Below are positions 16,004 through 19,739 of a stretch of DNA of 64,000 nucleotides, in pieces. The notes under the pieces are model-generated. The model ran no database searches. It had not been told where the DNA came from and saw only the letters and a program-made list of their open reading frames with translations. The position numbers were made by a program, and so were the translations under genes. The stretch's first letter is position 1; each line of letters begins with the position of its first letter. Source of the DNA: Escherichia coli (lineage in GTDB: Bacteria; Pseudomonadota; Gammaproteobacteria; Enterobacterales; Enterobacteriaceae); assembly GCF_003991155.1 (NCBI RefSeq), contig NZ_CP031293.1. The stretch is one strand, 5' to 3'.

Positions 16004-17254
16004 ATGGAAAGTAAAGTAGTTGTTCCGGCACAAGGCAAGAAGATCACCCTGCAAAACGGCAAACTCAACGTTCCTGAAAATCCGATTATCCCTTACATTG
16101 AAGGTGATGGAATCGGTGTAGATGTAACCCCAGCCATGCTGAAAGTGGTCGACGCTGCAGTCGAGAAAGCCTATAAAGGCGAGCGTAAAATCTCCTGGAT
16201 GGAAATTTACACCGGTGAAAAATCCACACAGGTTTACGGTCAGGATGTCTGGCTGCCTGCTGAAACCCTTGATCTGATTCGTGAATATCGCGTTGCCATT
16301 AAAGGCCCGCTGACCACTCCGGTTGGTGGCGGTATTCGCTCTCTCAACGTTGCTCTGCGCCAGGAACTGGATCTCTACATCTGCCTGCGTCCGGTACGTT
16401 ACTATCAGGGCACTCCAAGCCCGGTTAAACACCCTGAACTGACCGATATGGTTATCTTCCGTGAAAACTCGGAAGACATTTATGCGGGTATCGAATGGAA
16501 AGCAGACTCTGCCGACGCTGAGAAAGTGATTAAATTCCTGCGTGAAGAGATGGGCGTGAAGAAAATTCGCTTCCCGGAACATTGCGGTATCGGTATTAAG
16601 CCGTGTTCTGAAGAAGGCACCAAACGTCTGGTTCGTGCAGCGATCGAATACGCAATTGCTAACGATCGTGACTCTGTGACCCTGGTGCACAAAGGCAACA
16701 TCATGAAGTTCACCGAAGGCGCGTTTAAAGACTGGGGCTACCAGCTGGCGCGTGAAGAGTTTGGCGGTGAACTGATCGACGGCGGCCCGTGGCTGAAAGT
16801 TAAAAACCCGAACACCGGCAAAGAGATCGTCATTAAAGACGTGATTGCTGACGCATTCCTGCAACAGATCCTGCTGCGTCCGGCTGAATATGATGTTATC
16901 GCCTGTATGAACCTGAACGGTGACTACATTTCTGACGCCCTGGCAGCACAGGTTGGCGGTATCGGTATCGCCCCTGGCGCAAACATCGGTGACGAATGCG
17001 CCCTGTTTGAAGCCACCCACGGTACTGCGCCGAAATATGCCGGTCAGGACAAAGTAAACCCAGGCTCTATTATTCTCTCCGCTGAGATGATGTTACGCCA
17101 TATGGGTTGGACTGAAGCCGCAGACCTGATTGTTAAAGGTATGGAAGGCGCGATCAACGCGAAGACTGTAACCTATGACTTCGAACGTCTGATGGAAGGC
17201 GCTAAACTGCTGAAATGTTCAGAGTTTGGTGATGCGATCATCAAGAATATGTAA
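16004..17254 (+). CDS. icd: isocitrate dehydrogenase (NADP)
   Basis: 416-aa ORF recognised as Icd; intact native 3' end. Confidence 0.95.
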
Positions 17255-17277
17255 TCACTACATGTGTTAAATATTGT

Positions 17278-17312
17278 AACGGGCGTATAACACGCCCGTT
17301 GTTTTATTTATG
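17278..17312 (+). terminator. icd rho-independent terminator
   Basis: hairpin aacgggcgtataacacgcccgtt followed by a T-rich run, 24 nt after the icd stop. Confidence 0.6.
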
Positions 17313-17356
17313 TGGATATTATTAATATCATGTCGAGAATATTTATATGAAGACCA

Positions 17357-17680
17357 TTACTTGAGCCCATATGGGCATATTTTTATAATGCAACTATTAT
17401 GCAAACATTTATTTGTTATTTTGCTTTCTCCTGGAGGACACTCTTGACTGCTTTTGAGTAAACTCCATAAATCCTTGTTGAATGGTGCGATGTTATAAAT
17501 AGTAATAGGATATTCTTTATCCTTAAGGATAATACCATACTTAACCGGTGTAAATATACTTCCAGGAGGGAGAAATATAGTAGATTGATACCAGATGATC
17601 ATTTTCATATCACCCCATATGGCTGAAAAAGATATGCCGCATGTAGGTTGAATTACCGTGTCAATTACTATCCACTTCAT
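17357..17680 (-). CDS. iraM: anti-adaptor protein IraM (RpoS stabiliser)
   Basis: 107-aa ORF recognised as IraM/YcgW; sits in very AT-rich DNA. Confidence 0.8.
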
Positions 17681-18147
17681 TTGTTATGTCTTATCCCACG
17701 GTGCTTAATATAATTCATTTGGATGTTCATTTCTTGATTTTGCATATGTGTATATTACTCCCAAAAAAATAAATTAATTAAAAATTAATGTCATTATCTA
17801 TATAAAACAAAATTTAAAGCAAGGAATCTCAATAGAGATTAAACAAAATGAGATTTAGTGAAAACATTAAATTATTCACTTCGTTTTAGATTTGTTTAGC
17901 TAAAATGTTATACATTCAAATGACTGAATATTCTGTAATTAAAACATAGCCTTTATGCTACTTTGAGCCAATTTGCTAAACATTATGGTTGGCCTTTTAA
18001 TATAACGATAATGATGAATATAAGCATGACCTGAGAATAAGGTTTCAATTTTTTAGTTATATAGGAATGGTTAAACCCGTTCCTGACTAAAATACATATA
18101 ATCGGATGATGACTAAACCAAAACACATGTGCGTTAAGTATTGAAAC

Positions 18148-18180
18148 GGGCGTATGGCACGCCCGTTGGTTTTATAAATA
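18148..18180 (+). repeat. second copy of the icd terminator hairpin
   Basis: aacgggcgtatggcacgcccgttggtttta is near-identical to 17278..17306; the two direct copies flank iraM. Confidence 0.5.
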
Positions 18181-18382
18181 TGTTAACCGTTATAAAATAA
18201 CGTATAGAAAGTCAAGTGATCACATTTCAAATATCAAGTTGATAGTATTGATCTGGTGATTATTTATGGGTGGCAATAAAAAGACAGTATTACTCATCCA
18301 TATGAATAGTCTCTGCACTTTTATTTCCATTATGCTAATGCCTTACTGAATTATGAAGCATTTTTTAAGCATCCAACTTTAG

Positions 18383-18787
18383 CTAGATTAATGGTTTATT
18401 GTTTTCTACATCTTCAATATATAAAAGCGTATTATCAATGGCGTAGTAACTGCGTTTGTTATGATTAACATCAGTAACCCACCGGAAAACGCCCGCGTCT
18501 GCCAGTGTTGAACAGTATTCCCGAAATGTAGATTTTCCGCAAATATGAAGCAATGCGGCCTCTTTTATTTTAGCAGGGTTCTTGGTCGTACTAACTTTTA
18601 ACAGGTTCCTGGTTCCTCTTAATAACAAAACCGTGTCATCGTGAGTAATAATTCTGATGTTATCCGTAGCTAGATAATAAATGTAATGTGCAATACGGTG
18701 ATGTTTTAATTCTGAATAAAACCAGGAGAAGTTTTGCTCTTTTCTCACTTGCTCAAACATCTTTTGAAAAACAACGACCTGATCCAT
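18383..18787 (-). CDS. ycgX: DUF1398-family protein YcgX
   Basis: 134-aa ORF; length and position match ycgX. Confidence 0.7.
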   Translation of the reverse strand: MDQVVVFQKMFEQVRKEQNFSWFYSELKHHRIAHYIYYLATDNIRIITHDDTVLLLRGTRNLLKVSTTKNPAKIKEAALLHICGKSTFREYCSTLADAGVFRWVTDVNHNKRSYYAIDNTLLYIEDVENNKPLI

Positions 18788-19007: not shown

Positions 19008-19739
19008 TTAGGGGGCATGGAAGATGACTTTATAACCTTGCTCACCCCAGTGTTGTAAAAGTTCGTTTTGCCTTCTCGTTGGTGCCATGCCTGTCCAGAC
19101 AATTAATGTTTGCGTCGGGAACAGTTCCGGGCGCGGCGATTCAATGGGATCAGCAAGAACAGAAATGTGCCATCCTGACAATGATAAACGCCATGCTTCC
19201 AGCCACAATCGTGCTCTCTCTTCAACATTCCACGCCATCAGAATGGCTTCTTTACCGGGCTTACGGCGCATTTCGAAAAGCGAGGCTGCTGCGTATTCAA
19301 TTAATGCGCCGTCAAACATACTGCTCATAATGCGGGAGGTGTTGTGATCAAGCACGAGACGCTGGCGAACAGGAAGGTAAACATGATTAATCAATTGATC
19401 TACTGGGTACTCTCGGCCCAGTGAAATAATTCTCGCGCGTAGTTTGGCAGGATTAGCCATACGAAGAATTGACATCATCTCTTCTTGCAGGCGGCTCCAG
19501 TCATCTTCCGTATCCTGGCTGGTGGTTTCCAGTAATGCTTTAACTTTGCCTACAGGGACGCCATTACTTATCCAACGCTTGATCTCTTCGATGCGTTGTA
19601 TGTCTTCTTCATCAAAGAGTCGGTGTCCGCCTTCACTGCGCTGTGGTTTTAACAAACCGTAGCGGCGTTGCCAGGCCCGGAGAGTGACAGGATTAATCCC
19701 GCAACGTTCAGCAACATCACCAATGCTGTAATAAGCCAC
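19008..19739 (-). CDS. bluR: MerR-family repressor BluR (YcgE)
   Basis: 243-aa ORF with N-terminal MerR HTH ([27 protein letters not shown]). Confidence 0.85.

Follow-up and report, generated by a model that had tools for sequence, protein, structure and literature searches.

The window analyzed here, a stretch of 64,000 nucleotides of Escherichia coli DNA, carries the genes icd, iraM, ymgK, ymgL, ycgX and bluR in that order, as given by the RefSeq annotation of strain 2016C-3878, which is 100% identical to the window over the region compared. The relevant features are:

16004-17254, plus strand: icd, an intact 416-aa ORF, NADP-isocitrate dehydrogenase (RefSeq annotation of the identical strain)
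17258-17310, plus strand: repeat copy 1, comprising the 20-nt spacer after the icd stop codon, the hairpin at 17278-17300 and a T-run
17311-18124, no strand assigned: unique DNA of the iraM cassette, 29% GC
17357-17680, minus strand: iraM, RssB anti-adaptor of the PmrD-fold family PF11183, phrog_4407
17939-17983, minus strand: ymgK, a 14-codon ORF upstream of iraM and within the cassette (RefSeq annotation)
18073-18128: right end of the cassette, homologous to the trkG-containing haplotype C described below
18125-18178, plus strand: repeat copy 2, comprising a spacer-like flank, the hairpin at 18145-18167 and a T-run
18168-18215, no strand assigned: conserved icd-downstream flank, the T-run and then ...TGTTAACCGTTATAAAATAACGTAT...
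18220-18330, minus strand: ymgL, a small ORF (RefSeq annotation)
18383-18787, minus strand: ycgX, DUF1398, phrog_413, the right-hand neighbor of the cassette, with homologs in lambdoid prophages
19008-19739, minus strand: bluR (ORF list and RefSeq annotation)

Neither an integrase nor any prophage gene was present between icd and iraM in the ORF list or the annotation of the window. As icd is intact and no phage gene separates it from iraM, the e14/phage 21 attachment site is empty, as a sequence-only reading of this DNA had proposed. In a K-12 derivative, the corresponding order is e14 mcrA, an icd' pseudogene, hairpin 1 and iraM. The DNA between the repeat copies is very AT-rich, also as proposed, with a GC content of 0.294 for 17306-18129 versus 0.504 for icd. 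The AT-rich tract does not, however, end at the repeats: it runs past copy 2, through ymgL and ycgX, to ~18800. A transposon or IS-type insertion finds no footing at the locus, where we detected no transposase ORF and no convincing terminal inverted repeats (weak AT-rich pairs only), and the ~50-bp repeat exceeds the 2-14 bp range of target-site duplications made by such elements.

Copy 1 is located 55 nt beyond the stop codon of iraM, on the minus strand, and copy 2 lies downstream of ymgL-ycgX on the same strand. Ungapped alignment of 17263-17305 with 18130-18172 gave 86% identity over 43 nt in direct orientation, with a start-to-start distance of 867, and allowing two small gaps extends the homology to ~17258-17310 versus 18125-18178. 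The 9-bp stems (AACGGGCGT-loop-ACGCCCGTT) are identical in both copies, and 2 nt distinguish their loops (ATAAC versus ATGGC). Local alignment of copy 1 against the 3 kb downstream produced a score of 36, compared to 12.0 ± 1.4 and a maximum of 18 for 300 shuffles, and the hairpin motif occurs at only two places in the 64 kb, where 0 are expected (100 shuffles). The icd terminator is therefore present twice in direct orientation, ~870 bp apart, as had been claimed. Its description as near-identical holds for the stems and not for the remainder of the repeat, and the second hairpin, which had been placed at 18148-18180, actually occupies 18145-18167. Both copies are predicted to be terminator-like on the plus strand, each with a GC-rich stem-loop followed by a T-run, with predicted folding energies of -18.7 kcal/mol for copy 1 and -16.4 kcal/mol for copy 2. 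A stable fold is predicted on either strand, the T-runs on the minus strand being weak.

The hairpin of copy 1 is 100% conserved in Escherichia albertii, Escherichia whittamii, Escherichia sp. E1V33 and three Citrobacter species, and also in the phage 21-like prophage copy of O157:H7 SS52; the hairpin copy of phage 21 itself is 81-84% similar. This invariance fits selection on copy 1 as the icd terminator, its repeated replacement by phage-borne copies, or both. In K-12, copy 2 is degenerate (AACGGACGTGTGGCACGGCCGTT), with stem mutations that weaken the predicted fold to between -9.7 and -13.4 kcal/mol, and it is decaying there. E. coli genomes contain the hairpin at a median of 2 and a maximum of 4 places, and all copies inspected mapped either to the icd locus itself or to a prophage integrated in icd. 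An interspersed repeat family of the REP/BIME type was ruled out by the two copies in 64 kb and the median of 2 per genome. A match to the tpke11 sRNA (Rfam) at 17259-17328 on the plus strand was below threshold (23.7 bits against a gathering cutoff of 43; E = 0.036) and probably reflects a generic terminator or hairpin resemblance over copy 1.

Two variants of the hairpin region were observed among the comparison loci (L numbers). Strain 5283 carries copy 1 with the loop inverted, GGGCGTGTTATACGCCC instead of GGGCGTATAACACGCCC (L083 379-401, equivalent to window 17278-17300), which looks like a palindrome-mediated loop flip. In two strains, IS200C is inserted directly 3' of the hairpin T-run (CCCGTTGTTTTT|GTGCACAG), at the equivalent of window ~18172; it adjoins copy 2 in the iraM-positive strain 5283 (L083 ~1270-1995) and the single hairpin in the iraM-less strain E371 (L084 ~401-1125). 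The shared spot could mean either that IS200 prefers the terminator as a target or that a single insertion preceded the loss of iraM.

The polarity of the arrangement was given by outgroups. A scan for the hairpin with one genome per species returned E. albertii, E. whittamii, Escherichia sp. E1V33 and three Citrobacter species; it did not return E. coli, E. fergusonii, E. marmotae, E. ruysiae or clade I. In each recovered species one identical hairpin directly follows icd and iraM is lacking. The E. albertii type strain has icd occupied by a phage 21-like prophage, so it is uninformative as an empty site. In the unoccupied outgroups (E. whittamii, E1V33 and the three Citrobacter species) the hairpin is followed by a conserved flank consisting of the T-run and then ...GCTAAC(G/C)GTTAT(C/A)AAA..., beyond which the genes are wholly different (YeeN-like in E1V33, omptin in C. 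amalonaticus, an IS in Citrobacter sp. Cu233). The flank stands after copy 2 of the window and not after copy 1, and in iraM-less E. coli it directly follows the single hairpin. As the outgroups combine a single hairpin with the copy-2-type flank, the iraM segment is an insertion; it interrupted the ancestral icd 3' module and left the terminator of that module in two copies.

We surveyed 5,426 complete E. coli genomes for the segment. It was present in one piece in 3,852 of them, whether icd was occupied by a prophage or empty, and ~1,060 (~20%) had instead a single hairpin that joins the left flank of copy 1 to the right flank of copy 2. The block missing from the iraM-less genomes measures ~867 bp, which is the repeat spacing and corresponds to the cassette plus one repeat copy. 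Thus the clean, excision-like junction anticipated for genomes without iraM was found, the segment between icd and ycgX is present or absent as a block, and no integrase was seen in any haplotype. The single-hairpin strains include the type strain ATCC 11775, F11, ATCC 25922, UM146 and IMT5155, all of which we take to be phylogroup B2.

Two iraM-less genomes are particularly informative. HH45 and Z1323CEC0015 both have a ymgL-ycgX region identical at 601 of 601 positions to that of the iraM-positive O104:H4 strain. In HH45, a copy-2-type hairpin with an O104-specific variant is joined to the icd flank at ACATGTG, while in Z1323CEC0015 the O104 copy-1-type hairpin is joined to the right flank of copy 2. 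The two alleles arose by separate, precise deletions in a shared background, the crossover lying at one edge of the repeat in the first strain and at the opposite edge in the second. Because the crossover points differ while the flank is identical, loss of iraM recurs by recombination between the repeats. The losses are driven by homology and not by a cut at a fixed, specific site. E371 provides a further iraM-less allele, nested in B-type diversity (the B types being iraM cassette haplotypes). The secondary deletions in HH45 and Z1323CEC0015 rule out that the iraM-less allele is simply ancestral, and at least some such alleles are secondary deletions and not never-occupied sites. The B2-like iraM-less clade is 99-100% uniform internally and lies ~3% from the B types, and a synthetic B2-type junction with the loop of copy 2 had no match of at least 99%. 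We lean modestly toward loss over ancestral absence for this clade, because the B and C haplotypes both carry two copies. Separately, SS52-type O157:H7 genomes matched the query only through the end of hairpin 1, at a single place per record (L004 6356-7611), and had no iraM-ycgX match anywhere, which suggests a larger deletion or rearrangement at the icd-ycgX locus in part of the O157 lineage.

A rare arrangement between icd and ycgX, haplotype C, was found in 19 of the 5,426 genomes (example interval L100 2116-8680; others L094 and L098). On its left side, icd and hairpin 1 are followed by an e14-like flank with TTATCAAAA repeats, a 455-aa ORF, an IS5 remnant and trkG, which we take to be a Rac-prophage gene in K-12. 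After trkG come a variant of iraM (81% at the nucleotide level), a ymgB/ariR-like gene and the iraM upstream region (71%), and the right end consists of ~195 nt, ATCAAGAATATGT (the last icd codons), the spacer, hairpin 2 and ycgX (87%). The 455-aa ORF had no PADLOC match and weak PHROG matches that leave its function unassigned, and the ~195 nt beside the icd remnant in haplotype C1 had no match among the comparison loci. In C1, the final 13 nt of icd are preserved in the second copy, contiguous with the hairpin 2 region; 2 of the 19 genomes have neither the second hairpin nor ymgL. The second copy of haplotype C clearly derives from the icd 3' end and terminator, as would the attR of an icd prophage.

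The window cassette is related to haplotype C at both ends. On the copy-2 side the alignment score was 27 compared to 8.7 ± 1.6 for shuffled sequences (0 of 2000 shuffles reached it), on the iraM 3' side it was 16 compared to 8.4 ± 1.7, and a TTAAGTA variant is common to copy 2 of both. The two types diverge by 13-29% across the interval, and a search of the window for an icd coding remnant to the left of copy 2 produced no score above chance. Most simply, the two types go back to one old integration and have since undergone different deletions; they could also stem from independent insertions of related elements. We also noted TTATCAAAA-like motifs after the icd hairpin in an e14-like prophage (L005 6366-6445), in Citrobacter (L018 3650-3747) and in the trkG haplotype (L100 2160-2230), and, more diverged, in the E. 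coli flank after copy 2 (window 18168-18215). These motifs may represent integrase sites of the arm type, or else an ancestral flank of the host that e14-type elements copied.

Both the site and the IraM protein have phage connections. Prophages in icd, the structure of e14 having been described (PMC6379469), carry the icd 3' end, the hairpin, arm sites and int, as seen in the SS52 phage 21-like prophage, the e14-like prophage of TUM9812, which has its own variant hairpin, and phage 21. IraM matches phrog_4407, and its homologs, with 54-74% identity, are accessory genes of Stx2/lambdoid prophages, located between the antiterminator Q and the lysis cassette and in some cases adjacent to stx2AB; an IraM-family gene was present in 46 phage records, mostly of Stx2-converting phages. 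The DNA homology between the cassette and the phage iraM-like genes is restricted to the coding sequence (71-74% at the nucleotide level). The promoter region of chromosomal iraM is unrelated to that of the phage copies, which also have their own, unrelated terminators. A search of 50,697 phage records for a donor element found no DNA match to the cassette flanks beyond the iraM coding sequence and the hairpin. Neither the ORF lists nor the annotation of the window and of haplotype C contained an integrase, an excisionase or a gene for a phage structural protein.

Several further observations concern these gene families. Some Stx prophages have the IraM-family gene (71% identical) as the direct neighbor of the Shiga toxin A/B genes, with opposite strand orientation (L076-L078; L076 3206-5105), so that a homolog of an RpoS-stabilizing anti-adaptor is carried next to stx. 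YcgX has 70%-identical homologs in the Rz-Nu1 gap of E. albertii lambdoid prophages (L090-L092), and a 77% ycgX homolog lies at an unrelated locus, on the yedE/yedF side, in cryptic-clade Escherichia. The whole AT-rich interval from icd to bluR may be layered phage debris.

Taking together the duplication, the polarity of the insertion relative to the outgroups, the kinship of IraM with phage proteins, the larger relic haplotype and the recurrent precise deletion, we consider it reasonably probable that the iraM cassette is what erosion has left of a phage-like integrative element once inserted at the icd 3' end. An element related to those of the e14/phage 21 type, carrying its own icd 3' end and terminator, would have inserted there, and its integration would have duplicated both. 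Copy 1 would represent the attL side, now serving to terminate icd, and copy 2 the attR-side remainder of the displaced copy, still joined to the conserved icd-downstream flank. Internal deletions would then have removed the integrase, other cargo and the icd-coding part of the second copy. Specifically, the window type would have lost the arm flank, the 455-aa ORF, trkG, the ymgB-like gene and the icd remnant, so that iraM, its own AT-rich promoter region and ymgK are left over. We infer that the original insertion was made by an integrase with the crossover inside icd; the position of the crossover is taken from haplotype C because the window lacks an icd remnant to the left of copy 2. The proposal in the sequence-only reading that iraM was brought by an integrative element that later decayed is thus supported, though indirectly, by the phage homologs of IraM and by haplotype C, and the element itself we infer, as no integrase accompanies it.

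Other explanations have to be weighed against this one. The repeats might have arisen by direct site-specific integration at the terminator, through an attP ~86% similar to the 48-bp spacer and hairpin, with recombination in the right arm of the hairpin (CACGCCCGTTG), so that the copies are true attL and attR and icd coding sequence is uninvolved. The homology in the window does end a few nucleotides after the icd stop codon with no icd remnant to the left of copy 2, the differences between the copies fall mostly to the left of CACGCCCGTTG, which is the pattern that a P arm facing a B arm would give, and the insertion of IS200C immediately 3' of the hairpin indicates that the spot is accessible. 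Against this, haplotype C, to which the end of the window cassette is homologous, keeps 13 nt of icd next to its second copy, and the TTAAGTA variant occurs in copy 2 of both haplotypes. The deletion junctions lie at different points, so that at least the losses are not site-specific. No integrase of such specificity was found among the haplotypes seen, and we know of none that is specific for the icd terminator hairpin. We therefore regard direct integration at the terminator as unlikely. A stronger variant, in which the hairpin is the site of an undescribed recombinase that crosses over in the right stem arm and the iraM cassette is a minimal mobile unit, strikes us as a long shot. Somewhat less improbable than this variant is that no mobile element took part at all, a tandem duplication of the terminator or staggered-break repair having illegitimately captured the AT-rich iraM DNA. 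The absence of integrase and phage genes, the small size of the cassette (0.82 kb) and the lack of homology of its flanks to any phage in the collection searched speak for such an origin. However, icd is a documented hotspot whose phages carry the icd 3' end and terminator (PMC6379469), haplotype C combines prophage-type cargo (trkG) with an e14-like arm flank, and IraM belongs to a phage protein family; we doubt this explanation strongly.

The remaining two explanations retain virtually no credence. That iraM is an e14 gene, with the repeats irrelevant, is stated in PMC4045071 and would agree with iraM being the first gene after e14 in K-12. It is already refuted by the window, which has iraM without e14, by the position of K-12 iraM beyond the icd' pseudogene that marks e14 attR and by the 3,852 genomes with the iraM segment irrespective of icd occupancy. 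Likewise, short GC-rich hairpins with a T-run are common, and the second hairpin might have been an unrelated terminator with a chance or convergent likeness. The 20-nt spacer outside the stem is, however, shared, the alignment score (36) lies far above the shuffle maximum (18), the motif expectation is 0 and single-copy hybrid junctions occur in ~1,060 genomes. Thus copy 2 is a homologous copy and chance similarity is refuted, as had been supposed when the repeat was first noted.

The favored origin, an eroded integrative element, can be compared with known systems. Like e14 and phage 21 in icd, the iraM cassette occupies the same locus, with a module of icd end and terminator duplicated as direct repeats around foreign AT-rich cargo. 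There is likewise an empty-site allele, and haplotype C has, behind hairpin 1, a flank similar to the one in e14-like prophages. However, e14 and phage 21 duplicate 163-165 bp, whereas the duplication in the window spans ~50 bp without icd coding sequence and that of haplotype C1 includes 13 nt of icd, and the short duplication is compatible with erosion but is not the canonical e14/phage 21 att structure. Unlike these prophages, the window insert is only 0.82 kb, has no int, xis or phage genes and is lost through homology-driven events with variable crossovers. A second parallel is with "moron" genes and "grounded prophages", in which accessory genes of lambdoid or Stx2 prophages persist in the chromosome once the prophage has decayed, in that the IraM family occupies the gap between Q and lysis genes, the ycgX family occupies the Rz-Nu1 gap and the chromosomal pair is AT-rich; the difference is that chromosomal iraM shares coding sequence alone with the phage copies. 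The precise repeat-to-repeat losses in HH45 and Z1323CEC0015, with their different crossovers, resemble deletion between short direct repeats, which proceeds by slipped-strand or short-homology recombination and is often palindrome-stimulated, but here the repeats are the relic of an insertion and also act as predicted terminators. Finally, IraL of the UPEC strain CFT073, on the potB island, belongs to the same protein family, was horizontally acquired and is variably present, and CFT073-type strains lack iraM. It differs in locus and regulation, and PMC4045071 describes neither the repeat structure nor the empty-site junction of iraM.

The present-day working of the locus can be sketched from its layout. 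Hairpin 1 is the sole terminator-like structure between the convergent genes icd and iraM, so it probably ends the transcripts of both. Hairpin 2 is predicted to stop ymgL-ycgX transcription before it reaches the iraM promoter region, and the ~50-bp direct repeats would make iraM precisely losable, contributing to its patchy distribution. In K-12, ymgK and iraM are induced together by AZT, 96-fold and 39-fold (PMC11228462), which fits a self-contained unit inside the cassette. The iraM product is one of three anti-adaptors that stabilize the stress sigma factor RpoS in K-12, and iraM and iraL are homologs that are patchily distributed, with CFT073 lacking iraM (Hryckowian et al. 2014, PMC4045071). 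The same study places iraM on the e14 prophage, to which its patchiness had been attributed. Given that the window has iraM without e14 and given the gene order in K-12, iraM is outside e14, contrary to that placement. The variable presence of iraM and phage integration at icd were already known. Our literature search, whose coverage was incomplete, turned up no account of the repeat, of the empty-site junction or of the trkG haplotype, and a prior description elsewhere is possible.

These findings provide a structural basis for the patchy occurrence of iraM, namely, a separate 0.87-kb cassette outside e14 that is flanked by ~50-bp icd-terminator repeats and is recurrently and precisely lost, and the separate cassette explains why the presence of iraM does not track e14. 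For strain typing, the interval from icd to ymgL offers a PCR size marker that differs by 867 bp with and without the cassette. The duplicated terminator may serve as an "eject" device, which we find likelier than its being a recombinase site. If so, lineages would repeatedly discard iraM-dependent stabilization of RpoS under Mg2+ limitation, for example B2/ExPEC strains, which often use IraL instead. The locus is a resolved case of a known process, layered prophage decay at an att hotspot with a domesticated accessory gene, and not a new kind of system; in it, successive integrations at one att hotspot would leave layered terminator copies that insulate newly acquired regulators.
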